Positions 28,200 to 49,296 of a stretch of DNA of 64,000 bases are shown here, piece after piece (the first letter of the stretch is position 1; every line of letters begins with the position of its first letter). Position numbers and translations under genes: made by a program. A model generated the notes under the pieces. That model did no database searches. It was given only the letters and a program-made list of their open reading frames with translations, and was not told the DNA's origin. The stretch comes from Candidatus Omnitrophota bacterium (lineage in GTDB: Bacteria > Omnitrophota > Gorgyraeia > Zapsychrales > Zapsychraceae), in contig JADFXT010000002.1 in NCBI GenBank assembly GCA_015233405.1, positions 4,451 to 68,450 of the forward strand. Direction: 5' to 3'.

Positions 28200-28221
28200 A
28201 ATGACTGGTCTCCTTGTGTGG

Positions 28222-28647: not shown

Positions 28648-28648
28648 T

Positions 28649-31143: not shown

Positions 31144-31157
31144 AAGATATGCGCCTC

Positions 31158-31185: not shown

Positions 31186-31194
31186 AAAGTTTTT

Positions 31195-32007: not shown

Positions 32008-32040
32008 TTTACTCCTCCTTAATTGTTTTTTATTTATTTT

Positions 32041-32062
32041 AGCCCCGCTGTTTTGCGGGGCT
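32041..32062 (-). other. GC-rich hairpin between porin and pstS genes
   Basis: AGCCCCGC-N6-GCGGGGCT, 8-bp stem. No U-tract after it on the transcribed strand, so probably not a terminator. Confidence 0.4.
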
Positions 32063-32107
32063 AACTCCGCTCTCGCCCTAAGAGACCAGGACGTCGCGCC
32101 CTTCGAG

Positions 32108-33394
32108 TTAGAACTTTACGTTCCAATCCACCTGAACGACATGCGCAATTTGTCGGGCGCTTTGCGTCCCATGCAAAACACGACCTTGATAATAATCGAG
32201 TGCAAGATAGGTGTTTTTACCTAACCCATACTGGAATATCGCCTCGTGGGCAAACATGTCAGTTTTACCGCCCATACGGTCGGAATCCGGTAAAATATCA
32301 AGCACGGCATCTTTTTGTAATAGCCCGTAATTGTACTGCGCCTGCCAATCGCCCTTGTTGGCTATTTTGGCCGCGCCGAATTTGACCCCGCCCATATATC
32401 CGTTGGCGTTTTTTCCGTCTTTAATCCGCGGATTGGTGACATATTCTCCGAATAAACTAATTTGAGGAATATCAAGAAATCCGACATTAAGCGCTTTGAA
32501 AGGATCCACAATGGTAAGTTCAAGAGCCGGTGTAATGGTATCATACTCGTTAAGCAAATTTCCGAGGCTGTCTTTCGAGTTTGTGCCCACAGTTCCATCA
32601 AGGGCTCTATTTTTTACGCCGGATGTGGTGTAAAAGGAAACAGCACTTTTTAGCGATACTTTATCATTGAATTTAAAATTTGTTCCACCTTGCGTCACAT
32701 ACATCGTCGGGTCATCTCCATCGCCAGAATTCTCATCCAGAATTAAAACGCCCGAATTGATAAACCAGTCCAAATTGGAATTGAACTTTCCGGACAGCTG
32801 CAGAGCGCCTCCTTCGGGATTGATGTCTGTGTCCCAAATCAAATCGCCGGGTTCCCATAAAACGTTTTTAAATTTACCGACGGTGATGGTTGACCAGGAA
32901 AGTGGCGTATATTGAGCGTACGCGTAATCCAGCGTAATCGGGTGCTTGGAAAATCCGTTACCTAATGTTTGGTTGGTAGAGCGCGCGGTATCTTTGTCAA
33001 TGGCTGTTGCGTCATCTTTTCCCGTTGCCAAACCAATTCCGACGTTGAGTTTATCATTCGCTTTGGCTTCCATGCCTAAACGCAGCCTCACTCTGCCGCG
33101 GTTCTGGTCAGCGTGAGATTTCGCGGTATGGTCAAGCTGATATCTCGCCCGGAAATCCCCTTTTAACTTGATAGTCTGGACCCAGGAAGGTAATGAGGAA
33201 TCCGTGCCCTTGGCAATATCTGCTTTGATTTGTTCTTTGGTTTCTGTTCCGATCTGCTGTGCCTCGCCGGCGGTCAGGATCCCTTTCTCGACGAGCTTAT
33301 TAAGCAAAATGTCAATCTCCCCTGCCTGTGCCGACAGGCTCGCCAGCCCTAAAAATAGAACTGCGACGATAATGGTTAAAAAACGTTTCTTCAT
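32108..33394 (-). CDS. Outer-membrane beta-barrel porin (phosphate-selective by context only)
   Basis: 428 aa. Signal peptide, alternating beta-strand pattern, C-terminal ...VDWNVKF with terminal Phe. Directly upstream of pstS. Confidence 0.7.
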   Translation of the reverse strand: MKKRFLTIIVAVLFLGLASLSAQAGEIDILLNKLVEKGILTAGEAQQIGTETKEQIKADIAKGTDSSLPSWVQTIKLKGDFRARYQLDHTAKSHADQNRGRVRLRLGMEAKANDKLNVGIGLATGKDDATAIDKDTARSTNQTLGNGFSKHPITLDYAYAQYTPLSWSTITVGKFKNVLWEPGDLIWDTDINPEGGALQLSGKFNSNLDWFINSGVLILDENSGDGDDPTMYVTQGGTNFKFNDKVSLKSAVSFYTTSGVKNRALDGTVGTNSKDSLGNLLNEYDTITPALELTIVDPFKALNVGFLDIPQISLFGEYVTNPRIKDGKNANGYMGGVKFGAAKIANKGDWQAQYNYGLLQKDAVLDILPDSDRMGGKTDMFAHEAIFQYGLGKNTYLALDYYQGRVLHGTQSARQIAHVVQVDWNVKF

Positions 33395-33448
33395 GTCTCC
33401 TCCTTTTTAATTGTTGAATTGTTTTTTTCTACAACAACTATAAAAGAG

Positions 33449-33493
33449 GAACGTGAACGCTATAGGGCTAGAATGTGACAAGTTGGTGAATCC
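33449..33493 (-). promoter_or_regulatory. Candidate tandem Pho boxes upstream of the porin-pst operon
   Basis: Minus strand GATTCAC-CAAC-TTGTCAC-ATTC-TAGCCCT-ATAG-CGTTCAC. TCAC cores are phased at 11/22 bp. The array ends 10 nt before TATAGT (33437-33442). Confidence 0.45.
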
Positions 33494-33517
33494 TTGAAAA
33501 AATAAAGTGGGAGTTTT

Positions 33518-35296
33518 TTATGCTTTTGGCAGGGTAAAAGAAAATGCGGAACCACGGCCCAATTGACTCTCGACGGAAACTTCTCCGCTGTGGGCCTGGA
33601 TGATATGCTTGACGATAGACAAGCCTAACCCGGTGCCACCAAGTTCCCGAGAACGGGCTTTGTCGACACGGTAAAACCGTTCAAAGATCCTAGAGACGTC
33701 TTCTGACGGGATTCCTTCGCCGGTGTCTGCGACGGTCACAGACGCCGTGCGGGGACCTTTTTCTTCAGCAGAAATCTTGATCAATCCGCCTTCCTTATTA
33801 TATTTGATGGCGTTGTCCATGAGGTTATAAAAGACTTGGGTGATGCTTTTTTGGTCTACCCACACTTTCGGGAAATTGGACGGGATATAATTGGTAACAG
33901 TGAGATTCTTTTTTTGGATCTCACGAGACAAGGCTTCTAAGACTTGGGTCAACATCTCATTTAGATCGACAGGGACAAAATCCAGTTTTAACTTTCCGGA
34001 TTCGATCCGTGATAGATCCAGCAAATCGTTAATCAAGCTGGCTAAGCGGTTCGCGTCGGAATGAATAATTTCCACAAAATCCCGGGCGTTCTCTTTATCT
34101 TCTAAGGCCCCGTCTAGAAGTGTTTCCGCATAACCCTTGATGGTCGAGACCGGAGTGCGTAGCTCGTGGGATACGTTCGCAACAAAATCCTGGCGGATTT
34201 TTTCCAAACGCCGTAGTTCCGTAATGTCATGAAATACCAAGACCGCGCCATCATTCTGCTCTTCCTTTAGAATGGGCGTGGCATGGATCCATAAAATTTT
34301 TTCTTCGGGGATAAAAACCGCCAGCTGGCGGCTTTCCACACCCTGTTTTTTCTCGAGTGCTTTGTCCGTTAACTCCTGAATTTCGATGTTCCGGATCATT
34401 TCAAGCGGTTTTTGATGGAGATAGTCCTGATGGATATGAAACATGCGTTTTAAGGAATCATTGATAAAAAGGACCTGTCCCTTGGCATCAACCACCATCA
34501 GTCCGTCGAACATGCTTAAAAGGACGGTTTCCAATTTTGATTTATTGGATATCACTTCCTTCATCCTCAGTTTGATCTGATCAGACATTTCATTAATAGC
34601 GTCGGATAAATCCTGTATCTCATCGTTCGTCCTTATATGGCTATGTTTCGTGAAATACCCTTGGGCAATGCCTTTGGCAATCGCGGAAAGTTCCCGAACA
34701 GGTTTGGAAATAAACAAAGACGTCCAGAAGCTTAAAAGGATGGCTAAAGCAAACGCCAGGAGTAGCGCCCATAAAAGGAGTTGTTTTAACTTTGCGGAGA
34801 TCAGAGCGATCTCAGATAAGGGAATGGCTAGCCGGACAACCCCTTGAAAGTTTTTCTCAGATAATAAACCCGCGACGTAGAGCAAGTCCACTTTTAACGT
34901 CGAGCTAAATCGCCGGCTTAACCCAAAGCCGGTGTGCAAGGCTTGTTGGACTTCAGGACGATAAAGATGATTTTCAATCCCTTTGACTTGAGACAGATCC
35001 AGCTTTGAATCTCCCAAAACCACGCCGTCATTTCGGATGATCGTCACTCGTTCGTCAAGATTCTCTCCAAGTCGGTCGGCGATTGTGTCCAGGGATTCAA
35101 ACGATGGATTCTCGGGTAAATTTTCCTTTAGAGAGTTCGTCGCAACATTGAGCTTTCTGGATAAATCGGAAAGAATTCTTTGGTAAGCATTCTCGGTGAG
35201 ATTTTGGTTAAGGTCGTAATAAATAAACGTCAAGACAACGGCTGTTATAAACACCGTCACTAGAATGATCTTGGCGCGAATATTCAGATGGATCAC
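33518..35296 (-). CDS. phoR: PhoR-like sensor histidine kinase
   Basis: 592 aa. TM-periplasmic-TM, HAMP, PAS, HisKA (SHELRTPVSTIKGY) and HATPase (GTGLGLSIV); 4-nt overlap with the response regulator gene. Confidence 0.8.
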   Translation of the reverse strand: MIHLNIRAKIILVTVFITAVVLTFIYYDLNQNLTENAYQRILSDLSRKLNVATNSLKENLPENPSFESLDTIADRLGENLDERVTIIRNDGVVLGDSKLDLSQVKGIENHLYRPEVQQALHTGFGLSRRFSSTLKVDLLYVAGLLSEKNFQGVVRLAIPLSEIALISAKLKQLLLWALLLAFALAILLSFWTSLFISKPVRELSAIAKGIAQGYFTKHSHIRTNDEIQDLSDAINEMSDQIKLRMKEVISNKSKLETVLLSMFDGLMVVDAKGQVLFINDSLKRMFHIHQDYLHQKPLEMIRNIEIQELTDKALEKKQGVESRQLAVFIPEEKILWIHATPILKEEQNDGAVLVFHDITELRRLEKIRQDFVANVSHELRTPVSTIKGYAETLLDGALEDKENARDFVEIIHSDANRLASLINDLLDLSRIESGKLKLDFVPVDLNEMLTQVLEALSREIQKKNLTVTNYIPSNFPKVWVDQKSITQVFYNLMDNAIKYNKEGGLIKISAEEKGPRTASVTVADTGEGIPSEDVSRIFERFYRVDKARSRELGGTGLGLSIVKHIIQAHSGEVSVESQLGRGSAFSFTLPKA

Positions 35297-35985
35297 GCTT
35301 CCTCCTCGGAAAATTTATAACCGTAGCCGCGAATGGTCTCCAAATGCTTTCCTGCGCGGCCCAGTTTCTGACGAAGCCTTTTAACGTGTGTATCGACGGT
35401 GCGGGTGGTCACATCTGCCTGGATGTCCCAGACATCGTCTAAAAGCTGGTCTCTCGATTGAACGCGTCCAACACGGGTCATTAATGTGATCAAAAGCTTG
35501 AATTCCATCGCCGTTAACTCAACGATTTTTTCAGCAACCGTTACGGTATGGCGCGGGATATCAATGGTTATGTCCCCGATGGTGATAATATCTTTAGAGC
35601 CTTCGGGTTTCTTATTTTGAGCTCTTTTGAGGATGGCCTTGATTCTTAAAACAAGCTCTCGAGGACTAAAGGGCTTTACAATATAATCATCGGCGCCAAG
35701 CTCAAATCCCACGACGCGGTCGACCTCTTCCCCTTTGGCTGTCAACATGACAATTGGCACGCTTTGAAACTTGTTATGGGACCGAATTTGTTTACAAACT
35801 TCCAACCCGTCTATTTTAGGAAGCATGATGTCTAAGAGAATCAAGTCAACGCTCTGGGTATCCAAAACGTCAAAGGCCTCTTCGCCGGTAATCACGGCCG
35901 TGCAGGTATAGCCGGATTTCTCCAGAGCATATTTGACCAGCTTGGAAATGTTTTTGTCGTCTTCAACAATTAAAATGTGCGCCAT
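35293..35985 (-). CDS. phoB: PhoB-like OmpR-family response regulator
   Basis: REC domain (ILIVEDD...DLILLDIMLP) plus winged-helix (RGYGYKF). Start at ATG 35985 behind SD GGAGGA. The track ORF starts at 36015. Confidence 0.85.
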   Translation of the reverse strand: MAHILIVEDDKNISKLVKYALEKSGYTCTAVITGEEAFDVLDTQSVDLILLDIMLPKIDGLEVCKQIRSHNKFQSVPIVMLTAKGEEVDRVVGFELGADDYIVKPFSPRELVLRIKAILKRAQNKKPEGSKDIITIGDITIDIPRHTVTVAEKIVELTAMEFKLLITLMTRVGRVQSRDQLLDDVWDIQADVTTRTVDTHVKRLRQKLGRAGKHLETIRGYGYKFSEEEA

Positions 35986-36042
35986 ATTCCTCCAGTTTTT
36001 AACCGATGCAAACATCCTTTTCTCAAAGAATAACTTGCGGAT

Positions 36043-36123: not shown

Positions 36124-38139
36124 TTATTTTGCCTTGTGTTTTAGGTATTCCATCGCCGAAAGGATATTGATCATGACTCGCGCTTTTTCGATGGCAAACC
36201 CTCCCATGAAAAGGAGCGATTCTAAGTCGCCATACACCAGATGCTTGATGATTTTATCATGAGGATCCAGAGGAAAATCCATGTCGGCTAAAATTCGTTC
36301 ATAACGAAGCCCGACGTAAATGGTCCGCCTTAGATCCACTTGGCGAATCCCGTTAAAAAGTTGCACGCCCAGATTGGTCCTGCCGCCGTATTCCTGAACG
36401 TTTAATCCCTTTTTGACATACCCTAATTCCGAAAAAATAAGAGTTTCCGCCGTGCTAAACGGAGCGACGATCAAAAAGTCCGCATAATTGGTTTCGACCT
36501 CTTTGGCGATCTTTTTGTCGATCTGAAGCCGGCTGCGATATTCCAAGCTCCGTTCGAGCGGAGTTGGAATACAGCTCGTGGTCCGCCGGTTAAATGGTAA
36601 AAGGTTATAACAGCTGTCTGCCATGGTGCTAGAAAAGGGGCAATGATTTTCATAGATTAAGCGATAATCGCAATCGTTAGGATAATTAAACCCATACGCA
36701 CAGAAAAATGTGAACAGGATTAGCAGGATAAAACTAAAATGAATCAGCCTTGGCGTTAGAAGAACGAAGACGATCAGAAAGGCCAGAGCAAATAAAATCC
36801 ATGGCGGGAGAATATGAAAAAATAGATACAGATAGCCGGTGACGCCAGCGACGAGGATCTTGACAAAAAGCCGGGCGGTGCGTAAAGATTGGACGGTAAA
36901 GATAAATAGAAACGCCATAAACGGGGCCAATAAAAGTTGATAACGCGGAAGCATGGCGGAAAAGTTGAGATAAACCAGAAACCATAAAGCGCTGATGGTC
37001 AGCATGATCAAGACGATATAATGTTCTGTAAAAAATAATGCAAGCCTCCCTCGTTTTTCCCTCGGCTGCCGCCACCAGATGACTGATTGAATGAGAAAAA
37101 TAATCAAAGCTATTAAAAGGAGTTTTCCCCAAGGGTTTGCGGTCAGAAACGGCAAGCCGCAAAAAGCGGCTATACGGTTACCGGCAAGTTGTTCTCCGGC
37201 GATAACAGCGCGGATTTTAAACTTCACGAGCGAGATGATGAGGACCACGAGCCCGCACAATAAAAATTTCCAGCGCTTCTTTGTATCTGTTTCTTTTAAG
37301 AATAATCCGATACTAAAAATAAAGACCGTTAAACAGGCAATGACTCCGGGATCTTTAACGAAATTGGACAAGAGCGCCGTCACAGATGCGCTCACCAGCC
37401 GTCGTTGCCAGAGAAAATAGACGGCAAGCATGGCAAAAAATAAACATGGCATTTCCAAATTGAGAAGTTCCAGCATGCTTTGAAAAAGTGGCAGAGACAC
37501 AAGCAGGATGGCGCCATAGATGGCGATTTTCTCGTCGAAGGTTTGACGTAATATTTCTCGAAAAGTAACGATAACGATTGTGGCAAAGATGAAATGGAGC
37601 AAATGCATGACCAGAAGAAATATCGGCGTGCTGGGAATGATCTTCATCAGCGTGGCGATAAATAATGTATAGAAACATGTCGGATAGATCGGCGGGCCGC
37701 CTTTTGTAAACAAGTCCAGCTGAATCATGCCGATATAATTCAGGGAATGTTTATAAAGCCAAATGACGTCGATAAAAGGTCCAGTGATCGCCTCGCCATA
37801 CGGAGGGTCGAGCAAAACCTCAAACCGCGTTATGAACAAATAGGCAAAGATGATGAGCCCGAAACGGCGCGGCGTCAGTTTGTTTTGATAAATAAAACAA
37901 ATACTTAATAAGAGGACCCCGGCGAGAACTGATTTGATGGGACCTAAAAAAACAGTTTCAATCCTTCCTAAATAATAATCAAGCGGCATGCCTCCTTGGT
38001 TTCCTGCAAGCTTGTTAAGAAGGTCGTAGGATTGATGCTGGTAAAGATATTCAATGATCGGTTGGCCAAAGAATCTGAAAAAAAGAAAAAGGGCCGCCAC
38101 AGGAATAAAAATAATCCAGGGATTCCTAAAAAATTTCAC
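36124..38139 (-). CDS. Large polytopic membrane protein, possible GT-C-type glycosyltransferase / glycan polymerase
   Basis: 671 aa. At least 12 predicted TM helices plus a ~170-aa soluble C-terminus. Located 21 nt downstream of the sugar cluster. No firm motif. Confidence 0.45.
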   Translation of the reverse strand: MKFFRNPWIIFIPVAALFLFFRFFGQPIIEYLYQHQSYDLLNKLAGNQGGMPLDYYLGRIETVFLGPIKSVLAGVLLLSICFIYQNKLTPRRFGLIIFAYLFITRFEVLLDPPYGEAITGPFIDVIWLYKHSLNYIGMIQLDLFTKGGPPIYPTCFYTLFIATLMKIIPSTPIFLLVMHLLHFIFATIVIVTFREILRQTFDEKIAIYGAILLVSLPLFQSMLELLNLEMPCLFFAMLAVYFLWQRRLVSASVTALLSNFVKDPGVIACLTVFIFSIGLFLKETDTKKRWKFLLCGLVVLIISLVKFKIRAVIAGEQLAGNRIAAFCGLPFLTANPWGKLLLIALIIFLIQSVIWWRQPREKRGRLALFFTEHYIVLIMLTISALWFLVYLNFSAMLPRYQLLLAPFMAFLFIFTVQSLRTARLFVKILVAGVTGYLYLFFHILPPWILFALAFLIVFVLLTPRLIHFSFILLILFTFFCAYGFNYPNDCDYRLIYENHCPFSSTMADSCYNLLPFNRRTTSCIPTPLERSLEYRSRLQIDKKIAKEVETNYADFLIVAPFSTAETLIFSELGYVKKGLNVQEYGGRTNLGVQLFNGIRQVDLRRTIYVGLRYERILADMDFPLDPHDKIIKHLVYGDLESLLFMGGFAIEKARVMINILSAMEYLKHKAK

Positions 38140-38160: not shown

Positions 38161-39087
38161 TTATTTCGATTGGCAAGCGTCGATGATCGTCTTGGTGATG
38201 CTGGCGGTATCTAATCCGACTTGATTTCTGGCTGTTTGTTGGCAGTAAGCTTTTTCCAAAAAAATATCCGGCACTCCTAACGAGATGACCTGACAATGAC
38301 GCGGTTTTAATCCGGCCACCACCGAAGCAATGGCGCTTCCTAGTCCGCCGGTCACTTGAGCTTCTTCCAAAGAAATAATGACCGGATAACGTTCAGCGGC
38401 TTTCATAACGCCTTCGTTGTCAAAAGGCTTGAGCCACGGGGAGCTCCAAACTCCGACGGAAAATCCTTTTGCTTCTGTCTGTTTTTGGGCTTCGAGTGCT
38501 GTTATTAACATCCCGCCGGTCGAAATAATAAGCGCGTCTCGTCCATCTTTAACGGGAATCATCTTGCCGACGGTAAAGTCTGGTTTTGTTTGATGAACAA
38601 CCGGCTCGCCGGCTTTGCCTAACCGTAAATAACATGGGCCGGGCAATTCGCTGATCAATTTTGTAATGGCTTTACTCTCGACGGGGTCAGCCGGCGCGGT
38701 AACGGTCATGTTCGGTAAAGTGCGTAAAATAGCTAAATCTTCCAATCCATGGTGCGTGGCGCCTTGGGCGCCATAGGCAAATCCACCGCCGACCGCGACA
38801 ATTTTAACATTGGCTTTATGATAACAAATATCGTTACGGATCTGTTCCAGGCAACGCAGCGTCGGGAAATTTGCGATGGAATAGGTGAAAACGATTTTGC
38901 CAGACATGGCAAGCCCGGCAGCGATACCGGCCATGTTTTGTTCCGCCACACCAACGTTGACGAACCGTTTGGGAAAGCGGCTTATAAAACATTCCAGGAC
39001 GGAAAACCCGAGGTCTCCGCACAAAAGCCAGATGCGTTCGTCTTTCTCGGCTAATTCGCAAAGCGTTTCAATAAACGAAGTCCTCAC
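38161..39087 (-). CDS. Transketolase-family protein, C-terminal (pyrimidine-binding) subunit
   Basis: 308 aa. VGVAEQNMAGIAAGLA and C-terminal transketolase domain; 4-nt overlap with the N-terminal subunit gene. Confidence 0.9.
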   Translation of the reverse strand: MRTSFIETLCELAEKDERIWLLCGDLGFSVLECFISRFPKRFVNVGVAEQNMAGIAAGLAMSGKIVFTYSIANFPTLRCLEQIRNDICYHKANVKIVAVGGGFAYGAQGATHHGLEDLAILRTLPNMTVTAPADPVESKAITKLISELPGPCYLRLGKAGEPVVHQTKPDFTVGKMIPVKDGRDALIISTGGMLITALEAQKQTEAKGFSVGVWSSPWLKPFDNEGVMKAAERYPVIISLEEAQVTGGLGSAIASVVAGLKPRHCQVISLGVPDIFLEKAYCQQTARNQVGLDTASITKTIIDACQSK

Positions 39088-39896
39088 GACTCTTTCTCCA
39101 ATTCATTTAAAGCGTCTTTTAATTGTTCGTCTTTGGGCGATTTATAATGCCATTCGAGTTTGTTTTCCATAAAACTGATCCCCTTACCCTTGACGGTATG
39201 GGCAATGACGACGCTCGGTCGGTTTTGTTCAAAAGGTAGATTGCCTAACGTCGTTTCAATCGTTTCAAAATCGTGACCGTTGATTTCACGGACAGACCAG
39301 CCAAATGATTTCCATTTCTCAGCGAGAGGCTCTAAGTTCAGGACATCTTTGACGGTGCCGAAGCTTTGGATCTTGTTGTAATCCACGATAACGGTTAAAT
39401 TGTCCAGTTGATGATGTCCGGCAAAAAGAATCGCTTCCCAATTTGAGCCTTCATCTAATTCTCCGTCGCTTAATAGCGCGAAAACTCGGTATGGTTTGCC
39501 GTCTCTCTTGGCGGCCAAGGCCATGCCACAGGCGATAGGTAGTCCGTGTCCCAAAGAACCCGTCGAGACTTCTACGCCGGGAACGTGATGGCTGATATGT
39601 CCTGTCAATAACGCGCCGTCCTTGCAATAATCCTTCAGCCATTCTTTGGGGAAAAAACCTTTCTCAGCGAGGACCGCGTAAAGAATCGCGGCGGCGTGGC
39701 CTTTGCTTAAAATAAAACGGTCACGTTCTGGCCAGTCGCTTCGACGAGAGTCAACGCGTAAAATTTTGTTATATAAAACAGCGAGAATGTCGGCGATGCT
39801 TAAGCAGCTGCCGATATGCGAGGCGTTCGCCTGGTGGACCATTTTAAGCGCGTGGCTGCGGATGATCTTCGCTAATTGTTGGGATGTTGGAACCAT
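39084..39896 (-). CDS. Transketolase-family protein, N-terminal (ThDP-binding) subunit
   Basis: 270 aa. SHIGSCLS, SKGHAA and GDGELDEGSNWEA ThDP motifs. Confidence 0.9.
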   Translation of the reverse strand: MVPTSQQLAKIIRSHALKMVHQANASHIGSCLSIADILAVLYNKILRVDSRRSDWPERDRFILSKGHAAAILYAVLAEKGFFPKEWLKDYCKDGALLTGHISHHVPGVEVSTGSLGHGLPIACGMALAAKRDGKPYRVFALLSDGELDEGSNWEAILFAGHHQLDNLTVIVDYNKIQSFGTVKDVLNLEPLAEKWKSFGWSVREINGHDFETIETTLGNLPFEQNRPSVVIAHTVKGKGISFMENKLEWHYKSPKDEQLKDALNELEKES

Positions 39897-40795
39897 TGGA
39901 CGGTCTTTTCTAATCCTTGTTTTAAATTTGTTTGCGGCGTCCAGCCTGTTATTTTCTTGATCTTACGGATATCCGCCTCCAAATGCATCACTTGGTCTGG
40001 TCGATATTCTATAGCGCCAAATTGAGGCTGAATCTTAGGATTAACCAATTTTTGGATTATTTCAATGATTTTTCTTAACGGCACGGCCTTGCCGGATCCG
40101 AGATTGAAAATCCCCGGCGCGTTTGCGTAGGCTACACTTAAAATCCCTGTTGCGACATCGTCGATATAGAGATAATCCCAAAGCTGCTCGCATTTGGTGA
40201 GTTTTGGCGCGCGTCCTTGAGACAGTTCTTTAATGACATAAGGAATAAACCAGTCTGGATTGTCGTCGGGGCCGTAAGGAGAAAAAAGCCGGACCCAAGA
40301 GCCGGTCATTCCCGAAGCTTGGCAAAGCCCCAAAGCGGACCAAGAAGTGGCCACCTTAGACTTGCCGTAAAGCGTCGTCGGGTTTGTCGGAAACAGTTCA
40401 TCAACTTTTTGATTCGGGTTGCCGTATTCCGCCTGGGAACCTATGCCGATCCAATGAGCGCATCCGACGTCATAAGCCAGTTGCACGAGGTCCAGCGTAA
40501 AGGGAAGATTGTTTGTGATTTGAAATAATTCATTTCGGTCTTTCCCTCCCACGCCCTGCCACGCCGCATGAATAAAAATATCAGGCTTTAATGATTTGAT
40601 CTTTTGAAGGTTCTTTTTCTCGAGGAGAGTTTCATAATTAAACAGATAAACGCCTTTAACATTTTTGATGCGTGTTAAGTCGGAAGATTCTCTTTTAAGC
40701 GCAATGACCCGGTTGCCGTCTTTAGCGGCTTGTTTGATCAAGGCCGCGCCGACAAATCCGCTTGCGCCTGTTATGATAATGGTTTTTTTTGTCAT
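39872..40795 (-). CDS. NAD-dependent sugar epimerase/reductase (SDR family)
   Basis: 307 aa. TGASGFVG Rossmann motif and YGKSK catalytic YxxxK. Confidence 0.85.
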   Translation of the reverse strand: MTKKTIIITGASGFVGAALIKQAAKDGNRVIALKRESSDLTRIKNVKGVYLFNYETLLEKKNLQKIKSLKPDIFIHAAWQGVGGKDRNELFQITNNLPFTLDLVQLAYDVGCAHWIGIGSQAEYGNPNQKVDELFPTNPTTLYGKSKVATSWSALGLCQASGMTGSWVRLFSPYGPDDNPDWFIPYVIKELSQGRAPKLTKCEQLWDYLYIDDVATGILSVAYANAPGIFNLGSGKAVPLRKIIEIIQKLVNPKIQPQFGAIEYRPDQVMHLEADIRKIKKITGWTPQTNLKQGLEKTVQWFQHPNN

Positions 40796-40796
40796 A

Positions 40797-42041
40797 TTAA
40801 TTCCATTTCCCCGCCATCACGTCGATCACTGACTTAAACTGGGCAGCAGAATATCCTAATGGCAAGCAATCTTCCAAAATTTCTTTCATATAACCGTAAC
40901 TGAATACAATGACCTCATCGACGGGAGATTTTTTTAGATGGTCGAGCCCGTACACAGGAAGATGAGACTTCGGAGAATAAATCCCTTCCCCTTTTAATTT
41001 TTTATCGATCAGATATTTCATTTTTCCGGCGGAAGATGTTGCCGCCAGCGTCATAATGGCCCGGCCACCTGCGCCATAGCCAGCGACGGATTTCCCTGCA
41101 CGCACAGTTTTTTCAATGAACGCGTCTAAATTTTTTATGCCCTCTTTGATTTTGTCCGCTTGTTCGGTATAGAAACTCAGGCGATTGTATTGTTCCAATT
41201 GAACTTTAGGTGTTTTCCTGGACGAAAACCGCGAGGATTTGGGCGTGGCAATAAAAATCAATGAATTGGCGCGGCGGACAGATTCCGGGATCAGGTCAAA
41301 ATCGATCACCGTTAGTCCGGCTTTTTCCATGACCATCTGGGCTGTCGCCCGCGTTAAATAAATGGTATGTTCATGTTCTAAAAGGCAATATTCCCGACGG
41401 GATAACAATTTTTCGAGGTCGTGGACTTCAATGACCAAAAGCCCTGTTTGAGGGTCGAGAATCGAGCTTACTGCTTCCAGGAATTTAAAAGGCTCTGGAA
41501 GATGGTCAAACGTGTAGGATAAAAGAATAATGTCGGCTTTTTTAAAATCCGCTGGAAGTTTGGAAATGGATGACGAGTCGAATAATCCTTGAATCGACGG
41601 CACACCTTTTTCTTCAGCTTTCTTGACCAATGGCGCGGAAGGTTCATAGCCTAAAACCCGGCAGCCTTTTTCTTTAAAGAAGCGCAATTGTTCGCCGTCC
41701 CCGCTTCCTACCTCCAAAACTTTAAGCCCAGGGGCGTTATCGAAATAAGTTTTTAGGACAGATGCGGCGACATATTCCATGAATTGAGATGCAATTTTTG
41801 ATGCAGCGACGGAATAATGATAGGTATCGTAATAGGCGGATAAATCCGCATTATGTAAGGTCTGAACGGTCTGGCAGTCTTCGCAGAAATAAATATCGAT
41901 GTCCGCCAGAAATTCTTTTCCGAAGGTTTTGTCCGTGACATATTCATCCGTTAAAGGCATCTGAGGCAGCGTAAGGATTTTAACGACGCGAGTGGATTGG
42001 CAAATGCGGCAGGTTTTTTGATAAGCGATCTTAACGCTCAT
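40797..42041 (-). CDS. SAM-dependent NDP-hexose C-methyltransferase-like protein
   Basis: N-terminal Zn-ribbon (CRIC...CEDC), class I SAM motif VLEVGSGDG, C-terminal C-methyltransferase-type domain. Start taken at ATG 42041; the track uses GTG 42077. Confidence 0.8.
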   Translation of the reverse strand: MSVKIAYQKTCRICQSTRVVKILTLPQMPLTDEYVTDKTFGKEFLADIDIYFCEDCQTVQTLHNADLSAYYDTYHYSVAASKIASQFMEYVAASVLKTYFDNAPGLKVLEVGSGDGEQLRFFKEKGCRVLGYEPSAPLVKKAEEKGVPSIQGLFDSSSISKLPADFKKADIILLSYTFDHLPEPFKFLEAVSSILDPQTGLLVIEVHDLEKLLSRREYCLLEHEHTIYLTRATAQMVMEKAGLTVIDFDLIPESVRRANSLIFIATPKSSRFSSRKTPKVQLEQYNRLSFYTEQADKIKEGIKNLDAFIEKTVRAGKSVAGYGAGGRAIMTLAATSSAGKMKYLIDKKLKGEGIYSPKSHLPVYGLDHLKKSPVDEVIVFSYGYMKEILEDCLPLGYSAAQFKSVIDVMAGKWN

Positions 42042-43086
42042 GGGTGTATTCCTGGATTTGGTTGAGGCAAAGCGCACGGGCGTTTTGTTTGTTTTCCTGT
42101 TTGTACCAGTTAACGGTCATTTCGACGGATTCTTTAATATTTAAGCGTGGATGCCAGTTTAATTCCTTCTTCGCTTTTGAAATGTTAAGGCTTAAGAGTT
42201 TTGTTTCGTGGAGATCTTTGGACGTGTGGATGTCCTGCCAACGGCCTTGTCCCCAATATTTGATGACCAGATCTGCTATTTTTCCGACGGGAACAATGGA
42301 TTGCCTTTCGGGCCCAAAGTTAAAGGCCTGCGCAAATTGTTTTTCATTATTAAGTAACTTTTCACCCAGAAGCAAATATCCGTAAAGAGGTTCCAACACA
42401 AATTGCCACGGACGCGTGGATTTGGGATTTCGAATTTTAATTGGCTGATTTTTTTTAAGCGCGCGGATACAATCCGGCAAAAGCCGGTCTTTGGAAAAAT
42501 CCCCTCCGCCGATAATATTTCCTGCCCGGGCAGATGCGACTAAGATGCCTTTCTCGGCAAAGAAAGACTTGCGGTAGGATTCTATAATGAGCTCTGCGAC
42601 CGCTTTGCTGGTGCTGTAAGGGTCATGCCCGCCCAGCTCGTCGGTTTCTTTATATCCTTTATTCGTTTCTTTATTTTTGTAGCATTTGTCCGTCGTGATA
42701 ATAACGCCTTTGTTTAAGAAGGGAAATTCTCTCAAGCACTCAAGGACATTGACGGTTCCTAAGGCATTACTTTCAAAGGTCGTTTTGGGATTCGCATAAG
42801 AGTCTCTGACCAATGGCTGGGCCGCGAGATGAAAAACCATTTGGGGTTTGTATTTGAGGATTACGTTCTTTAAAGATTTAAAGTCTGCGACGTCTCCTCT
42901 TTGATCAACAATATCTTTGGCGAGGTTGGTTTCTTTAAAAAGATAGTTATTGTCCCACTGAGGAAGGGAATATCCGATGACTTTCGCGCCGAGCTGATGA
43001 AGCCAAAGGCTTAACCACGCGCCTTTAAATCCCGTATGCCCTGTGACGAGAATTTTTTTATTTTTATAAATTCCGGAAAAATTCAT
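42031..43086 (-). CDS. rfbG: CDP-glucose 4,6-dehydratase
   Basis: VTGHTGFKGAWL, YSTSK (YxxxK) and overall RfbG layout. Start taken at ATG 43086, 5 nt after the rfbF stop; the track uses GTG 43128. Confidence 0.9.
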   Translation of the reverse strand: MNFSGIYKNKKILVTGHTGFKGAWLSLWLHQLGAKVIGYSLPQWDNNYLFKETNLAKDIVDQRGDVADFKSLKNVILKYKPQMVFHLAAQPLVRDSYANPKTTFESNALGTVNVLECLREFPFLNKGVIITTDKCYKNKETNKGYKETDELGGHDPYSTSKAVAELIIESYRKSFFAEKGILVASARAGNIIGGGDFSKDRLLPDCIRALKKNQPIKIRNPKSTRPWQFVLEPLYGYLLLGEKLLNNEKQFAQAFNFGPERQSIVPVGKIADLVIKYWGQGRWQDIHTSKDLHETKLLSLNISKAKKELNWHPRLNIKESVEMTVNWYKQENKQNARALCLNQIQEYTHER

Positions 43087-43091
43087 CGAGG

Positions 43092-43874
43092 TTACCACAA
43101 TTTCCACGGAGCTTGGTTTTGAGCCCACAATTCATTCAGAAGTTTCATGTCTCTTAAGGTGTCCATCGGCTGCCAGAATCCGTCGTGCAGATACGCCATG
43201 AGCTGGCGTTTAGAAACCAGTTTTTCAATGGGGTCTTGCTCGAACGGCATATGGTCTCCGGCGATATAATCTAAGACCTCCGGCTCTAAGACAAAAAATC
43301 CACCGTTGATCCATCCTTCGCGTAAACGCGATTTTTCAAAAAATTTCGTGACGGTTTGGTTTTCCAAATCAAGACCGCCGAACCGCGCTTCGGGACGAAC
43401 GGCCGTGACTGTGGCTAATTTGCCGTGCTTTTTATGAAAGCGGATAAGTTTTTCAATGTCCACATTGGAAACCCCGTCGCCGTATGTCATCAAGAATGTA
43501 TCATTCCCGATCCATTCTTTAAGCCTTTTGATACGTCCGCCGGTTTGTGTTTTATATCCGGTATCAATTAAATGCACTTTCCAGTCTTCCGGCGGCTGGC
43601 CGTGGACCACAGCCTTTCCGTTTTTGGTGTGAACGGTCAAGTCTCGTCCGAAATAATGGTAGTCGAGAAAATAACGTTTAATAAATTCGCTTTTATACCC
43701 TAAGGCCACCAGGAATTCATTAAATCCAAAGGAGGAATAGATCTTCATGATATGCCAGAGAATGGGTTTCTCTCCGATTTGCACCATCGGCTTGGGCATG
43801 CTGGAGGTTTCTTCCTGAAGGCGCGACCCGACCCCTCCGGCGAGAATAACCACTTTCATGCTTTTTTTCGTCAT
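43092..43874 (-). CDS. rfbF: Glucose-1-phosphate cytidylyltransferase
   Basis: 260 aa. VILAGGVGSRL...PKPMV, YGDGVSNVDI and DTLRD motifs typical of RfbF. Confidence 0.9.
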   Translation of the reverse strand: MTKKSMKVVILAGGVGSRLQEETSSMPKPMVQIGEKPILWHIMKIYSSFGFNEFLVALGYKSEFIKRYFLDYHYFGRDLTVHTKNGKAVVHGQPPEDWKVHLIDTGYKTQTGGRIKRLKEWIGNDTFLMTYGDGVSNVDIEKLIRFHKKHGKLATVTAVRPEARFGGLDLENQTVTKFFEKSRLREGWINGGFFVLEPEVLDYIAGDHMPFEQDPIEKLVSKRQLMAYLHDGFWQPMDTLRDMKLLNELWAQNQAPWKLW

Positions 43875-43899: not shown

Positions 43900-44838
43900 T
43901 TAGTCGAAATTAATGCGTTCTTTTTCTACCACCATCGGCCTTTTTAGGCTTCGGATATGCATAAGGCCGATATATTCGCCGAGAATTCCGATAAAAAATA
44001 ATTGAACAGAAAACAGGAAAAAAACGGCGATGATCAGAGGCGCCATTCCCATGGGGAACATGGGCCAGAAAAGTAATTTGGCTATCAAATATCCGACGGC
44101 AATTAAAAAGCTCAAGCTCGCCATAAAAAAACCGGCAATGGTCGCAATTTTTAAAGGCACGCGGGAGTGGCTGGTAATGCCGATCATGGCATAATCGTAA
44201 AGTTTGTAAACGTTTCGATATTTGCTTCTCCCCCGTTTTCGTTCGGCCTGACGATATTCGATCTTAGCACTTTCAAACCCGAGCTCGGCGATAAGCCCCC
44301 GCAAATAGGGATAAGTGTCCGGCATCTCCCGAAAGATGGCAACGACTTTTTTGTCGTACAATCCGAAACCGTTAAAGTGCGTGTCCAGTTCAACGTCGGA
44401 TAATTTGTTGGCGAAACGATAGTAACAGCTTCTTAATTTATATATGAAATGATTTTCCTCGCTGGAGGTCTTGATGCCTTTAACCACGGGAAAGCCTTCT
44501 TCCCATTTGCGGATGAATTCCGGAATCATGGCCGGAGGGTCTTGCATGTCTGCCGCGATAAACACAACTCCGTCGCCGCGGGCTTGGCAAAGTCCGTAAA
44601 AAATCGAGCGGATATCTCCGAAATTTCTTGTGTTAACGATGATCTTGACGTTGTGGTCTTTTTTAGCCAAGTCTTTGAGGATGCTGACGGTTTTATCCTC
44701 GGAGGAATTGTCGATAAAGATGTGTTCGTAGTCATATTTTTCTAGACGATTAAAGATGTCTTTGATCTGGCGATAAATTTCTTCGACATTTTCTTCCTCA
44801 TTGTAACAAGGCGTCACGATGCTGATCAATTTCTTCAT
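43900..44838 (-). CDS. GT2 polyprenyl-phosphate glycosyltransferase (GtrB/ArnC/DPM1-like)
   Basis: 312 aa. N-terminal GT-A fold (VTPCYNEE...IDNSSEDKT...ADMQDPP) plus two C-terminal TM helices. Confidence 0.85.
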   Translation of the reverse strand: MKKLISIVTPCYNEEENVEEIYRQIKDIFNRLEKYDYEHIFIDNSSEDKTVSILKDLAKKDHNVKIIVNTRNFGDIRSIFYGLCQARGDGVVFIAADMQDPPAMIPEFIRKWEEGFPVVKGIKTSSEENHFIYKLRSCYYRFANKLSDVELDTHFNGFGLYDKKVVAIFREMPDTYPYLRGLIAELGFESAKIEYRQAERKRGRSKYRNVYKLYDYAMIGITSHSRVPLKIATIAGFFMASLSFLIAVGYLIAKLLFWPMFPMGMAPLIIAVFFLFSVQLFFIGILGEYIGLMHIRSLKRPMVVEKERINFD

Positions 44839-44859: not shown

Positions 44860-45867
44860 TTATTCGGATTTCATTTTTCTGGACATAAGGTCTGAAACGG
44901 CTAAAAGAGGTTTCTTATTCTTTGTGATGATATGGTAAACTTCCGTCGTGATTGGCATGGTCACATGATGTTTTTCGCTTAATTTGTAAACCGCGATAAC
45001 CGTGTCCACGCCTTCGGCCACCATATCCATCGAAGAGGTGATGTGCCGAATGGTTTTCCCCTTCCCTAATTGTTCTCCGACCGAACGGTTACGGCTTTGA
45101 GGGCTCACACAGGTTGTGACCAAATCGCCTAAGCCGCTTAATCCGACGAATGTTTTTTCTTTTGCGCCAAACGCTTTTCCCAGACGGGCCATTTCCGCCA
45201 AACCGCGCGTTAAGATAGCAGCTTTGGTGTTTGAGCCAAAACCAAGCCCGTCGCAAACGCCGCAAGCGATCGCGATGATATTTTTTATGCTTCCGCCTAA
45301 TTCAACACCAATGACGTCGGTGTTGGTGTAAATTCGAAAACTCGAAGAATTGAAGATCTCTTGGATGATTTTGGCTGTCTTGATCTTCCGCGAGGCGACA
45401 ACCGCTGTCGACGGAATTCCTTTGGCGACTTCTATCGCAATCGTTGGCCCGGATAAGACGGCAAAGGATACGTCCCCTAATTCTTTTTGAACGATCTGGG
45501 ATATCCGTAAAAGTGATTTTGTATCAATCCCCTTCGTTACGCTTAAGAAAATTTTCTTGGAAAGGTCGACGTTTGTTTTTTTGATATTTTTTAGGACCTG
45601 CGTGGCGTATTTTGACGGAACGGCAAAGACGATAATATCCGCATCCGTAAGAGATTCTTTTAAGTCGTCGGTAATGAGGACTTCTTGGGGGATGGCTATC
45701 CCGGACAGGAATTTTGAATTAGTGCGGGTTTTGCGGACCTCTTTGAGATATTCCGGGAAAGGCCCCCAGAGTTTGACGGGATAATTCTTTTTAGCCAGGT
45801 GAACCGCTAACGTGGTTCCCCATCCTCCGTCTCCAATGATGGCAATGTTTTGTATTTTAGTCGGCAT
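44860..45867 (-). CDS. gpsA: NAD(P)H-dependent glycerol-3-phosphate dehydrogenase
   Basis: 335 aa. IGDGGWGTTLA Rossmann motif and GVELGGSIKNIIAIA. Confidence 0.95.
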   Translation of the reverse strand: MPTKIQNIAIIGDGGWGTTLAVHLAKKNYPVKLWGPFPEYLKEVRKTRTNSKFLSGIAIPQEVLITDDLKESLTDADIIVFAVPSKYATQVLKNIKKTNVDLSKKIFLSVTKGIDTKSLLRISQIVQKELGDVSFAVLSGPTIAIEVAKGIPSTAVVASRKIKTAKIIQEIFNSSSFRIYTNTDVIGVELGGSIKNIIAIACGVCDGLGFGSNTKAAILTRGLAEMARLGKAFGAKEKTFVGLSGLGDLVTTCVSPQSRNRSVGEQLGKGKTIRHITSSMDMVAEGVDTVIAVYKLSEKHHVTMPITTEVYHIITKNKKPLLAVSDLMSRKMKSE

Positions 45868-45935: not shown

Positions 45936-47804
45936 TCATGGATGAGGCCGTGAGACCTGATATAAAGAGAATATTTTATTACTATAAATATGTTTTAATA
46001 ATGCATTATCGGACGGCGGGCGAGCATAATGCATAAAAACGATATAATCGACGTTGTATTTGAAAATGGCCTTCTGAAGCGCCAGGGTATATGGTTCGGA
46101 AGGAAAGACTTTGAAGGTTTCAATGTCTTTGATTCGTCTTTCCCACTCTAAAGCGGCGTTATAGTCAAATCCGACAATCCCGCAATCGCGAAAACAGGCA
46201 ATGATTTTCCGTTCAGAAAAAATGCGGAAGCCGCCCATTTCCATATTATAAGGCACGAGGAGCATAGCGTCTTTGGGTGTGTTTTGCTGGACGTATCGTT
46301 GCATCTCTTCCCACTGGTCCTGAAGTTCCCAAAATCCTGACTGCCTGTTTTGAGGCTGATCAAAGGTGTAGTGATAATAGGAAAATTGGAAGGAAAACAT
46401 GACCAAGGGAATAACATAAAAGAATTTTCTTAGAGAACCAAAAGACGTGTTTTTTCTCGCCCAGGTTTCGTAACAGTAAATCAACGTCAGTAATACGAGA
46501 ATGACTCCTAGGTTAATTCTTGCAAATGACCGTAAAGGCAATGTGCTCTGGAGATAGATGATCAGGATAATACCCGCAAGAAAAGTGACGGCGGTCAACG
46601 CAAGCAGCGTATGCTGAAGCGGCGTCTTATTTTCCCGACGTGAAATTGTCACAAACGTAAATGTCAGTAATATTAAAATTATAGCGATGGGCTCGATCGG
46701 ATGCCCATATTTTAAAAGAGTTAGAAAAATAGCCAGGATAAATCCGATCCATAACGGTCCGTTTTCAATCGTTTCCATTAAAAGGATTAGTAAATATCCC
46801 ATGAGGAAGAATGACAGAAATTGAATGTTCCGGATGAGATTGAGGTCCAGGGCGAATTTATTGGGAGCGACGTAGGAAAACAAGAAACAAAAGAACAATA
46901 AAATTGAGGCGGAGAAACATAGTGCTTGTGTTTTTTTATCCTTGATAAAACGAGGATTGAAAAAAATGTTCGTGAGAAATATTACGGCGAGCACGGCATA
47001 GGGAATGGCTTCTTTGAGATTCATGGTTAACGGAGCGCCGGGCGTTAAAAGAAAGTTCTGTGGGCAGGCGATCTTATAAAGAGTTAGCCAGTCGGAAGCC
47101 CCGGGAATAGGGATGATCGGCGGTTTATTAAAACGGGTGCTGATCGTCCAGATCAGAAAAGGTAAGCTGAAAATCGCATAGAAGAAAACGGATTGGACCA
47201 GCGTCTTTACGCCGTGTTTTTTGTTTTGCCATAACAGGTAGCTTCCTATAAAGACCATCGGAAACAGGCTGTAAAGGGCATGGAAGTTGGCGGCGATTCC
47301 TAAAATGACTGCTGCCAGGACAAAGCGTTCTTTGTAGAAAAAATAAATTCCGGCAAAGACAAAGGCCAGAGTAAACTCCTCGTGGGACATGGTCCGGTAC
47401 AGAAATTCATCCACGCGCACCATGACGATAAAGGCGATGATATACCAGAAGGCCCGCGATCCATTTTCGGCTAAAAGCCGCCAGAGTTTAAACATCCAGA
47501 AAAACATGAAGTATCTAGAAAGAAGAAATAAAATAAAATAAACGGTTGGGATCTGCTTAACGGTGATCAATCGTGCCAGGATAGGAAAGAAAAACGAGGT
47601 GAAATTTTTCTTGAGGCTCTCGACGTAATAATCCCCCTGATAGAGCGAGTGGTCGATGAGGCTTTTGAGCATCGGGAGTTCCAGATGCTGGTCGTCCCAG
47701 CCGTAGTGATAACCGTTCGAGGCCAGGAAGATCAAGAGAATGATGAGCGCGATAAACCAATCGGATCGTAGGAATTTGGGAAGATGCGTTCTAAGAGAAT
47801 CCAT
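45936..47804 (-). CDS. Large polytopic membrane protein, possible GT-C-type glycosyltransferase
   Basis: 622 aa. Many TM helices; acidic first-loop motif YGWDDQH; soluble C-terminal domain. No SD in front of the ATG. Confidence 0.45.
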   Translation of the reverse strand: MDSLRTHLPKFLRSDWFIALIILLIFLASNGYHYGWDDQHLELPMLKSLIDHSLYQGDYYVESLKKNFTSFFFPILARLITVKQIPTVYFILFLLSRYFMFFWMFKLWRLLAENGSRAFWYIIAFIVMVRVDEFLYRTMSHEEFTLAFVFAGIYFFYKERFVLAAVILGIAANFHALYSLFPMVFIGSYLLWQNKKHGVKTLVQSVFFYAIFSLPFLIWTISTRFNKPPIIPIPGASDWLTLYKIACPQNFLLTPGAPLTMNLKEAIPYAVLAVIFLTNIFFNPRFIKDKKTQALCFSASILLFFCFLFSYVAPNKFALDLNLIRNIQFLSFFLMGYLLILLMETIENGPLWIGFILAIFLTLLKYGHPIEPIAIILILLTFTFVTISRRENKTPLQHTLLALTAVTFLAGIILIIYLQSTLPLRSFARINLGVILVLLTLIYCYETWARKNTSFGSLRKFFYVIPLVMFSFQFSYYHYTFDQPQNRQSGFWELQDQWEEMQRYVQQNTPKDAMLLVPYNMEMGGFRIFSERKIIACFRDCGIVGFDYNAALEWERRIKDIETFKVFPSEPYTLALQKAIFKYNVDYIVFMHYARPPSDNALLKHIYSNKIFSLYQVSRPHP

Positions 47805-48945: not shown

Positions 48946-49296
48946 TTAAGACCGTAATGATCGAATCAAACCGGTGAGTAATTTGCCGATTTCTTCTGAC
49001 TGAAATTTTAACTCCAAATATTTTTCTTCACGATAATAATGCAGGTCTTTTGCGAGAATAAGATAATATTTGGTTTCTTCCAAAGAGCCTTGTGCTATAT
49101 CGAGAAAGCGCGCAAAATCTTTTCTTGTTTTTTTATGCCCTTCGGCAATATTTACACAAATGGAAAACGTTGAACGTCTGATTTGGCTAATAATCCCGAC
49201 GGATTCTTCTTTCGGGAAATCTTTTGTTATTCTGTAGATTTCTATAACAAAGATGTGTGCTTTTTGCCAAACAATAAGATTCTCAAAACTGTTCAT
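48946..49296 (-). CDS. Four-helix-bundle protein (23S rRNA intervening-sequence protein / Avd-like family)
   Basis: 116 aa. Family hallmarks: LIVWQKAH...IYRITKDFPKEE...ISQIRRS..SI..NIAEG, QGSL.E and a helical C-terminus. Strong SD GGAGGGG. Confidence 0.85.
   Translation of the reverse strand: MNSFENLIVWQKAHIFVIEIYRITKDFPKEESVGIISQIRRSTFSICVNIAEGHKKTRKDFARFLDIAQGSLEETKYYLILAKDLHYYREEKYLELKFQSEEIGKLLTGLIRSLRS

Follow-up and report, generated by a model that had tools for sequence, protein, structure and literature searches.

What sugar is made by a bacterial operon that joins the synthesis of cytidine diphosphate (CDP)-linked hexoses to a C-methyltransferase and a split transketolase? The question is raised by positions 38161–43874 of a 64-kb stretch of DNA (hereafter the window) from a Candidatus Omnitrophica metagenome-assembled genome (MAG). 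According to the original prediction, made from the sequence alone, RfbF and RfbG produce CDP-4-keto-6-deoxy-D-glucose at this locus, the 3-deoxygenation genes (E1/E3) of the classical route are absent, and the tightly coupled genes that follow would build a C-methylated and/or two-carbon-branched CDP-6-deoxyhexose. That prediction called for a survey of gene neighbourhoods, and it would have yielded to a transketolase with an ordinary pentose-phosphate function or to an O- or N-methyltransferase. Our analysis leads us, with a confidence only just short of even, to an operon that makes and delivers an unusual surface sugar, a C-methylated CDP-6-deoxyhexose to which the transketolase adds a two-carbon branch at C4. 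Among the determinants of bacterial surface antigens and antibiotics, branched-chain sugars are rare. The six-gene cassette is a testable and well-supported lead, not demonstrated new chemistry.

The stretch from 38161 to 43874 is filled exactly by six co-directional open reading frames (ORFs), all on the minus strand, and each of the five junctions is an overlap or a gap of at most 1 nt. The first product, RfbF (43092–43874, minus strand; TIGR02623, Pfam NTP_transferase), is a glucose-1-phosphate cytidylyltransferase, the enzyme that forms CDP-glucose; it matches its equivalog family over its full length at 375 bits against a cut-off of 300, with residues 6–260 covering profile positions 1–255. 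RfbG (42031–43128, minus strand; TIGR02622), the CDP-glucose 4,6-dehydratase, scores 474 bits against an equivalog cut-off of 278 in a match that begins at residue 20. On the basis of this family membership, the pair would convert glucose-1-phosphate and CTP to CDP-4-keto-6-deoxy-D-glucose. The remaining four products are a C-methyltransferase, a short-chain dehydrogenase/reductase (SDR) and the two transketolase subunits, here called TKN and TKC. The overlaps between the RfbF and RfbG genes (37 nt) and between the RfbG and C-methyltransferase genes (47 nt) are inflated because upstream GTG codons over-extend two of the ORFs. The RfbG ORF has an internal Met at residue 15, and its true start is likely the ATG at 43086; that of the C-methyltransferase is likely at 42041, giving 414 amino acids, the length of the NCBI protein. 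Downstream, a gap of 1 nt separates the C-methyltransferase and SDR genes, the SDR and TKN genes overlap by 25 nt, and TKN and TKC share a 4-nt GTGA stop/start overlap in which TKC starts at GTG with GGAG upstream.

The first two steps are shared with the classical CDP-3,6-dideoxyhexose pathway (RfbF, RfbG, RfbH/E1, RfbI/E3, RfbS/RfbJ). In place of RfbH, however, the window has a C-methyltransferase and a transketolase: no RfbH/E1 or DegT-family match was found by tblastn with a 734-bit RfbH query in the 64-kb window, in which E3/RfbI was not searched for separately. The original prediction therefore stands as regards the two opening enzymes, the missing E1 gene and the tight coupling, and its assignments of a Zn-ribbon S-adenosylmethionine (SAM) C-methyltransferase, an SDR epimerase or ketoreductase and a two-subunit thiamine diphosphate (ThDP)-dependent transketolase are upheld by the profile and structure matches described below.

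The C-methyltransferase (40797–42077, minus strand; Pfam Methyltransf_13/23/14) has three domains, a Cys4 zinc domain (PF08421), a SAM domain (PF13489) and a C-terminal domain (PF08484). Its residues 21–403 align to the solved sugar 3-C-methyltransferases 4rv9 (1e-35), TcaB9 and 5t6b. The zinc site keeps both its CxxC pairs, and four of the five TcaB9 active-site positions (Y76, H181, E224 and H225) are conserved. Because of the full-length family match, the intact zinc site and these four active-site residues, we regard the enzyme as a C-methyltransferase and not as an O- or N-methyltransferase. Enzymes of the TylC3/MtmC type (4rv9), TcaB9 (3ndi) and KijD1 (5t6b) share its three domains, zinc site and catalytic Glu-His, are about 25–30% identical to it, and act on nucleoside diphosphate (NDP)-4-keto-6-deoxy sugars. 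By analogy with them, C3 is the most likely site of methylation. The window enzyme differs in its presumed CDP- rather than dTDP-linked substrate, in the retention of the 2-OH on that substrate, and in the fifth active-site position, where Y222 is replaced by Glu. The resulting motif, EHEH, is common to 116 of the 120 closest homologs and stands against YDEH in TcaB9 and YHEH in 4rv9 (subfamily homologs P0130–P0248); it is a candidate marker of CDP-sugar C-methyltransferases. A metagenome scan with this protein as query returned five distant loci only, at 25–27% identity.

The SDR (39872–40795, minus strand) is an extended NDP-sugar oxidoreductase, either a ketoreductase or an epimerase, with a Pfam Epimerase score of 124 bits. 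Among solved structures it is closest to NDP-sugar epimerases and 4-reductases, for example MoeE5, UDP-glucose 4-epimerase and GDP-6-deoxy-4-hexulose reductase. The ketone that it reduces may be the one at C4 or one on the branch.

The two subunits at the downstream end carry the domains of a transketolase, with the ThDP/PP domain in TKN (39084–39896, minus strand; Pfam Transketolase_N, 167 bits) and the Pyr and C-terminal domains in TKC (38161–39087, minus strand; Pfam Transket_pyr and Transketolase_C). Their closest solved relative is the split transketolase of Carboxydothermus hydrogenoformans, which has the same subunit split and domain order; TKN matches 6yak at 294 bits, and TKC matches 6yaj at 215 bits and then DXS at about 107 bits. 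MAFFT alignment with E. coli TktA and the C. hydrogenoformans pair revealed that the cofactor and catalytic residues H26, H66, H100, D155, N185, E411 and H473 are kept, with the equivalent of H261 lying within a WHY motif. Judged by these residues, the pair looks catalytically competent, and the three domains, the activating Glu and the metal ligands place it in the transketolase superfamily, with GDG changed to SDG. Further changes in TKN are GQG to GHG and NGxQxDG to NKIQSFG, and in TKC H461 is replaced by Gly and E468/D469 by Ala/Gln (GEDG to GAQG). Where C. hydrogenoformans has GDG, GQG, TH...GEDG and WHG, the window thus has SDG, GHG, VGGG...GAQG and WHY. The canonical set of pentose-phosphate substrate residues (R358, S385, H461, D469 and R520 in E. 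coli) is accordingly broken: R358 is kept, R520 is Lys, and the equivalent of S385, which is misaligned in the MAFFT alignments, was read by eye as Cys. NCBIfam transketolase scores all fall under their cut-offs, for example 292 against 488. The 64-kb window yielded no second transketolase.

Having characterized the individual enzymes, we sought the company that this type of transketolase keeps in other genomes. A scan with TKN across one genome per species found at least 588 stretches encoding a relative, and the best 80 loci, 57–72% identical in TKN, were surveyed. Counts of loci are approximate, being based on tblastn and cluster labels, and simple ORF calling gave spurious antisense ORFs in high-GC loci. 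These loci come from more than 10 phyla (Chloroflexota, Acidobacteriota, Planctomycetota, Proteobacteria, Verrucomicrobiota, Elusimicrobiota, Omnitrophota, Nitrospirota, Bacteroidota and others) and from one archaeal MAG. Every one of the 80 has TKN and TKC as a pair. Upstream flank of 5 kb or more is available for 61 loci, and 50 of these carry nucleotide-sugar or glycan genes (RfbF, a PglF-like dehydratase, Bac_transf or DegT). The clade is found almost only in surface-sugar gene clusters and not in housekeeping, pentose-phosphate or catabolic contexts, so that the ordinary function that would have told against the original prediction was not what the survey found. Two distant split transketolases (about 47–50% identity) in which GDG is intact sit in sugar-catabolic loci. 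The motifs specific to the clade are only three, SDG, NKIQSFG and WHY.

Two contexts recur. In the CDP type, RfbF and RfbG are followed by an optional C3 module, then by SDR-TKN-TKC and a Wzx-like gene or an ArnC-like family 2 glycosyltransferase (GT2); in the other, a PglC-like transferase, a DegT aminotransferase and a PglF-like dehydratase surround TKN-TKC. In a neighbour-joining tree built on the two concatenated subunits, the CDP type and the PglC/PglF type form separate clades, with the window in the former, and the nearest tree neighbour has the same type of context in 48 of 61 loci. RfbH is present in 15 of the 31 CDP-type loci (734 bits against a cut-off of 423), an ortholog of the window C-methyltransferase in 4, a distant C-methyltransferase in 5 and neither in 10. 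SDR orthologs occur in 16 CDP-type loci and ArnC-like GT2 orthologs (40–53% identity) in 9 of the 31. The transketolase pair usually has a ketone-processing enzyme beside it, namely an aldo-keto reductase, a DegT aminotransferase or an ortholog of the window SDR, the last (36–56% identity) directly upstream of TKN in 16 of the 80 loci. The design is therefore modular across relatives, with a 4-keto-6-deoxy core, an optional C3 module (none, RfbH or C-methylation), and a transketolase accompanied by a ketone-processing enzyme; this pattern agrees with ThDP-dependent attack on the ketone at C4.

The window cassette itself is not a singular arrangement. Two independent metagenome contigs have its exact order, RfbF-RfbG-C-methyltransferase-SDR-TKN-TKC, and one of these has an upstream GT2 as well; four further loci (L030, L100, L101 and L102) have the order with small insertions or rearrangements, that of L102 being a single extra C-methyltransferase. 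Near-identical gene sets are found in L030, L101, L102 and the cultured Spirosoma sp. KCTC 42546, which reads Wza-Wzz-...-RfbF-RfbG-SDR-C-methyltransferase-TylF-TKN-TKC-glycosyltransferases. Other cultured carriers of the clade are Chthonomonas calidirosea (L090; Wzz-RfbF-RfbG-sulfotransferase-kinase-SDR-TKN-TKC), Bradyrhizobium sp. YR681 and Methylovirgula sp. HY1, whose plasmid pHY1 is annotated by PGAP as rfbF-rfbG-oxidoreductase-rfbH-transketolase-transketolase C-terminal, next to genes for a GT2 and a GtrA-family protein. These cultured organisms make the branching question directly testable.

Given these results, how might the enzymes work together? From CDP-4-keto-6-deoxy-D-glucose, the C-methyltransferase would, by the chemistry of the TylC3/TcaB9 family, use the 4-keto group to methylate an adjacent carbon, likeliest C3. 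The split transketolase would then transfer a ThDP-bound two-carbon unit to the ketone at C4 and so form a 4-C-branched tertiary alcohol; of all the steps, this is the least certain. The two-carbon unit would be glycolaldehyde, taken from hydroxypyruvate or a ketose phosphate, or, with lower likelihood, hydroxyethyl derived from pyruvate. In canonical transketolases, H26 and H261 hold the hydroxymethyl group of the donor, and the retention of H26 and of the H261 equivalent slightly favours the glycolaldehyde unit over a pyruvate-derived one. Finally, the SDR would reduce the remaining carbonyl on the side chain, as YerF does in yersiniose synthesis.

The yersiniose A pathway is a close model for such a scheme. 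It starts from CDP-4-keto-6-deoxyglucose made by enzymes of the RfbF/RfbG type, and its reductase acts on the branch carbonyl. RfbH leads, in the established 3,6-dideoxyhexose pathway, to CDP-3,6-dideoxy-4-ketohexose, and its presence in about half of the CDP-type loci means that the product class there would be the class of substrate used by YerE. The window cassette resembles YerE/YerF of Yersinia pseudotuberculosis, ErwE and JanthE in being CDP-hexose based and in having a ThDP enzyme, but its ThDP enzyme is a two-subunit member of the transketolase family, its C3 would be C-methylated and not deoxygenated, and its activity is a predicted one. YerE itself is a decarboxylase-superfamily enzyme that draws on pyruvate to add a carbon branch to the C4 ketone (PMC12247030). 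The window enzyme is not of that superfamily, although it may work like YerE.

The 2025 review of this field recognizes two demonstrated kinds of ketone-accepting, tertiary-alcohol-forming ThDP enzymes, the YerE-like decarboxylase class and the alphaKADH2 keto-acid-dehydrogenase class (PMC12247030). The ketone-accepting transketolases that it mentions are a handful, all from Streptomyces: hydroxyacetyl branching is proposed there for the transketolases of miharamycin, amipurimycin and 13 Streptomyces biosynthetic gene clusters (Krug et al. 2024, as cited in PMC12247030). So far as the accounts given of them allow a comparison, these split transketolases share with the window a two-subunit enzyme within a sugar-modifying cluster, and are set apart from it by belonging to actinomycete secondary metabolism, whereas the window clade lies in surface-glycan clusters of more than 10 phyla, is much larger and can be recognized by motifs of its own. 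A literature search for transketolases in connection with CDP-glucose, O-antigen or yersiniose-type pathways found no description of the cassette. We propose, tentatively and at something less than an even chance, that the SDG-motif split transketolases of glycan clusters are a large unrecognized family of ketone-accepting ThDP enzymes, and that the operon yields a doubly branched CDP-sugar (3-C-methyl, 4-C-C2) delivered by a lipid carrier and a GT-C transferase. The branch placed by this family on NDP-4-keto-6-deoxy sugars may be glycolyl or dihydroxyethyl, or acetyl or hydroxyethyl. If keto-sugar branching is indeed the function, the clade would be a new class of biocatalyst for chiral tertiary alcohols, new sugars would be predicted in the envelopes of poorly known lineages, and the 3-C-methyl, 4-C-C2 sugar would be of a kind undescribed in any glycan.

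A number of observations count against branching by the transketolase. Such branching of keto sugars has been proposed but never shown in vitro (PMC12247030), so that the precedent to which the original prediction appealed, ThDP enzymes attaching two-carbon branches to sugars, stands for YerE-like and alphaKADH2 enzymes and not for transketolases. TKN is 57–72% identical across cassettes for different sugars and even different nucleotides, which is unusual for an enzyme that must grip an NDP-sugar. Elsewhere, sets of aminotransferases and acyl- or formyltransferases seem enough by themselves for a complete sugar, so that the transketolase looks like an extra. As a marker of the glycan clade, the loss of H461 and D469 had to be dropped, because the catabolic split transketolases of S. 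meliloti and Chondrinema plasmids likewise lack both; it shows only that the window enzyme is not a canonical pentose-phosphate transketolase. Lastly, one locus (L099) consists of RfbF-RfbG-C-methyltransferase-SDR with no transketolase within 8 kb, and it is this locus that carries the closest homolog of the window C-methyltransferase (58% identity). Its SDR is 54% identical to that of the window, compared with 56% for the SDR of the transketolase-bearing Spirosoma cassette. The SDR is therefore perhaps a plain C4 ketoreductase that competes with the transketolase for the ketone, and its role as a dedicated, YerF-like partner of the transketolase is weakened. The simplest reading of L099 is that four genes are enough for a CDP-6-deoxy-3-C-methylhexose.

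That reading can be extended to the window, where RfbF, RfbG, the C-methyltransferase and the SDR would finish a CDP-6-deoxy-3-C-methylhexose of the virenose, evalose or vinelose type and the transketolase pair would do another job for the same glycan. We consider this an appreciable, if minority, possibility. The SDR would then be a C4 ketoreductase or epimerase-reductase, and the transketolase might provide the ketol or aldehyde from which a non-sugar substituent is built, or have some other intermediate as its substrate. Substantial weight attaches to such a division because of L099, the apparently self-sufficient sets elsewhere and the conservation of TKN. It also accords with the occurrence of the transketolase pair without a window-type SDR, beside aminotransferases, formyl- and acyltransferases, TylF-type methyltransferases and aldo-keto reductases. 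CDP-vinelose of Azotobacter is, moreover, a CDP-linked 3-C-methyl-6-deoxyhexose made without a ThDP step; a literature search on vinelose returned no match. On the other side, the 25-nt overlap couples the pair translationally to the SDR, and in almost every CDP-type locus the pair closes the run of sugar genes; nothing that might serve it in a different role (carrier protein, lipoyl domain, kinase or phosphatase) was seen, the transketolase phylogeny follows the type of nucleotide-sugar pathway, and the sugar ketone is the only carbonyl chemistry available in the cassettes. The hedged wording of the original prediction, C-methylated and/or two-carbon-branched, covers both this division of labour and the C4-branched product that we prefer.

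It is very unlikely that the pair acts on the CDP-4-keto sugar without branching it, whether by cleavage and re-ligation of a C–C bond (epimerization or ring rearrangement) or by a Stetter-type extension. The non-canonical residues of the acceptor site, and the equal scores of TKC against DXS and transketolases, would agree with such chemistry, but cleaving the bond beside C4 would break open the pyranose ring, the conserved H26 and H261 equivalent favour ordinary ketol transfer, and we know of no precedent in sugar-nucleotide chemistry. More improbable still is an ordinary pentose-phosphate transketolase lying beside sugar genes by chance, which is rejected on genomic context and motifs: split transketolases do serve many bacteria and archaea and the closest solved structure is a functional one, but H461, E468 and D469, all retained in that functional enzyme, are lost in the window in addition to the change to SDG, 50 of 61 relatives lie in glycan clusters, the reading frames overlap with the SDR, and the pair looks accessory in Bradyrhizobium and on the Methylovirgula plasmid.

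Returning to the C4-branched sugar, its proposed delivery draws on genes on either side of the cassette. The six genes are as originally described, but the unit does not end with them. A GT2 gene (43900–44838, minus strand; Pfam Glycos_transf_2) lies 25 nt upstream of RfbF, and a gene for a 671-amino-acid polytopic membrane protein (36124–38139, minus strand) lies 21 nt downstream of TKC. The former encodes an ArnC/GtrB/PgfS-like candidate polyprenyl-phosphate glycosyltransferase, in which a catalytic domain is followed by two C-terminal transmembrane segments (residues 234–286). Its NCBIfam matches are full-length but sub-threshold (PgfS, 205 bits against a cut-off of 500; ArnC, 121 against 529). 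On Methylovirgula pHY1, the GT2 beside the cassette matches it at 40% identity or more and is paired with the GtrA-family gene.

The 671-amino-acid protein has about 12–15 transmembrane segments and a 200-amino-acid C-terminal domain, and it gave no Pfam or NCBIfam match. An AlphaFold2 model from a 7-sequence alignment (pLDDT 75, pTM 0.80) was compared with the PDB by Foldseek, and ranks 1–26 and most of the top 32 were GT-C glycosyltransferases, whose donors are lipid-phosphate sugars, including ArnT (5f15, E 3.8e-4), ALG9 (TM-score 0.43–0.51, a modest value), PglB, AftA, EmbB and Pmt4. From this predicted fold, the protein is a candidate periplasmic transferase of a lipid-linked sugar. Only 8 homologs were found among 5.8 billion proteins. 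One of them, 38% identical, ends an operon that reads TKN-TKC-GT2-DUF4915-sulfotransferase-SDR. The two closest homologs (in the L091, L092 and L093 set) each follow an unannotated protein of about 272 amino acids and have no transketolase nearby.

Further upstream, a gene for a 622-amino-acid polytopic membrane protein (45936–47804, minus strand) has a C-terminal DUF6798 match (Pfam, 48 bits) and encodes about 11 transmembrane segments and a soluble C-terminus; its single-sequence model (pLDDT 45) was unusable. It may be a second lipid-carrier-dependent transferase, and it has no profile similarity to the 671-amino-acid family by hhalign. Between it and the GT2 lies a 335-amino-acid ORF (44860–45867, minus strand; gaps of 68 nt upstream and 21 nt downstream), GpsA-like by eye only from its translation, that is, resembling a glycerol-3-phosphate dehydrogenase. 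It is probably outside the sugar pathway, though embedded in the operon.

The operon thus probably spans 47804 to 36124, with the gene for the 622-amino-acid protein first and that for the 671-amino-acid protein last. A promoter and terminator scan found sites no more numerous than in shuffled controls. Synteny and fold suggest that the GT2 would move the finished CDP-sugar to polyprenyl phosphate and that, after flipping, the GT-C-fold protein would transfer it to an acceptor in the envelope; no flippase gene was recognized in the operon. ArnC/ArnT, the Gtr systems (GtrB, GtrA and the type-specific Gtr) and CsbB/GtcA/YfhO likewise place a GT2 with C-terminal transmembrane helices and a GT-C-fold transferase beside sugar-nucleotide genes. 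The window differs from them in that the donor would be a CDP-sugar and the GT-C protein has no detectable sequence family. The operon probably unites CDP-sugar synthesis with lipid-carrier delivery of this ArnC/ArnT- or Gtr-like kind.

Several surveyed loci have features of their own. In L087 (8827–10008) and L102 (7830–8978), the gene immediately upstream of TKN is a second, distant member of the C-methyltransferase family, accompanied by RfbH in the former and by the ortholog of the window C-methyltransferase in the latter; this implies doubly C-methylated sugars or a methylated new branch. In Chthonomonas calidirosea, a sulfotransferase and an APH/fructosamine-kinase-like gene lie between RfbG and SDR-TKN-TKC (L090, 7076–9098), a hint of sulfated or phosphorylated versions of the sugar. 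The sister clade has a cassette of its own in 24 loci (L018, L025, L036, L043, L055, L056, L073 and others), in which a PglC-like transferase is followed by an optional TylF methyltransferase or aldo-keto reductase, TKN-TKC, a DegT aminotransferase, an optional class I/II aminotransferase and methyltransferase, and a PglF-like dehydratase. Such a cassette points to a parallel function in which the substrates are keto sugars derived from UDP-HexNAc. On plasmid pDCAR1 of Solidesulfovibrio carbinolicus (L086), the split pair is joined by a further transketolase C-terminal gene at the edge of the locus, with two TKN-like places, in a pseB/pseC cluster of the pseudaminic-acid type with radical-SAM, ATP-grasp and several methyltransferase genes. 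A DegT-TKN-TKC trio lies within a nonribosomal peptide synthetase cluster on Streptomyces parvulus pSPA1 (L084).

Within the window, a complete phosphate-starvation block (27528–36015, minus strand) encoding a PhoR-like kinase, a PhoB-like regulator, a porin, PstS, PstC, PstA, PstB and PhoU starts 108 nt downstream of the GT-C gene. Upstream, amid glycan genes, there is a lone 116-amino-acid bAvd-like or 23S rRNA intervening-sequence protein (48946–49296, minus strand; PF05635, 128 bits). Proteins of the bAvd type can accompany diversity-generating retroelements. Just upstream of the glycan operon, a GDSL-like acylhydrolase adjoins an MBOAT membrane O-acyltransferase (49747–52548, minus strand), a possible pair for glycan O-acylation of the AlgI/AlgJ or DltB type.

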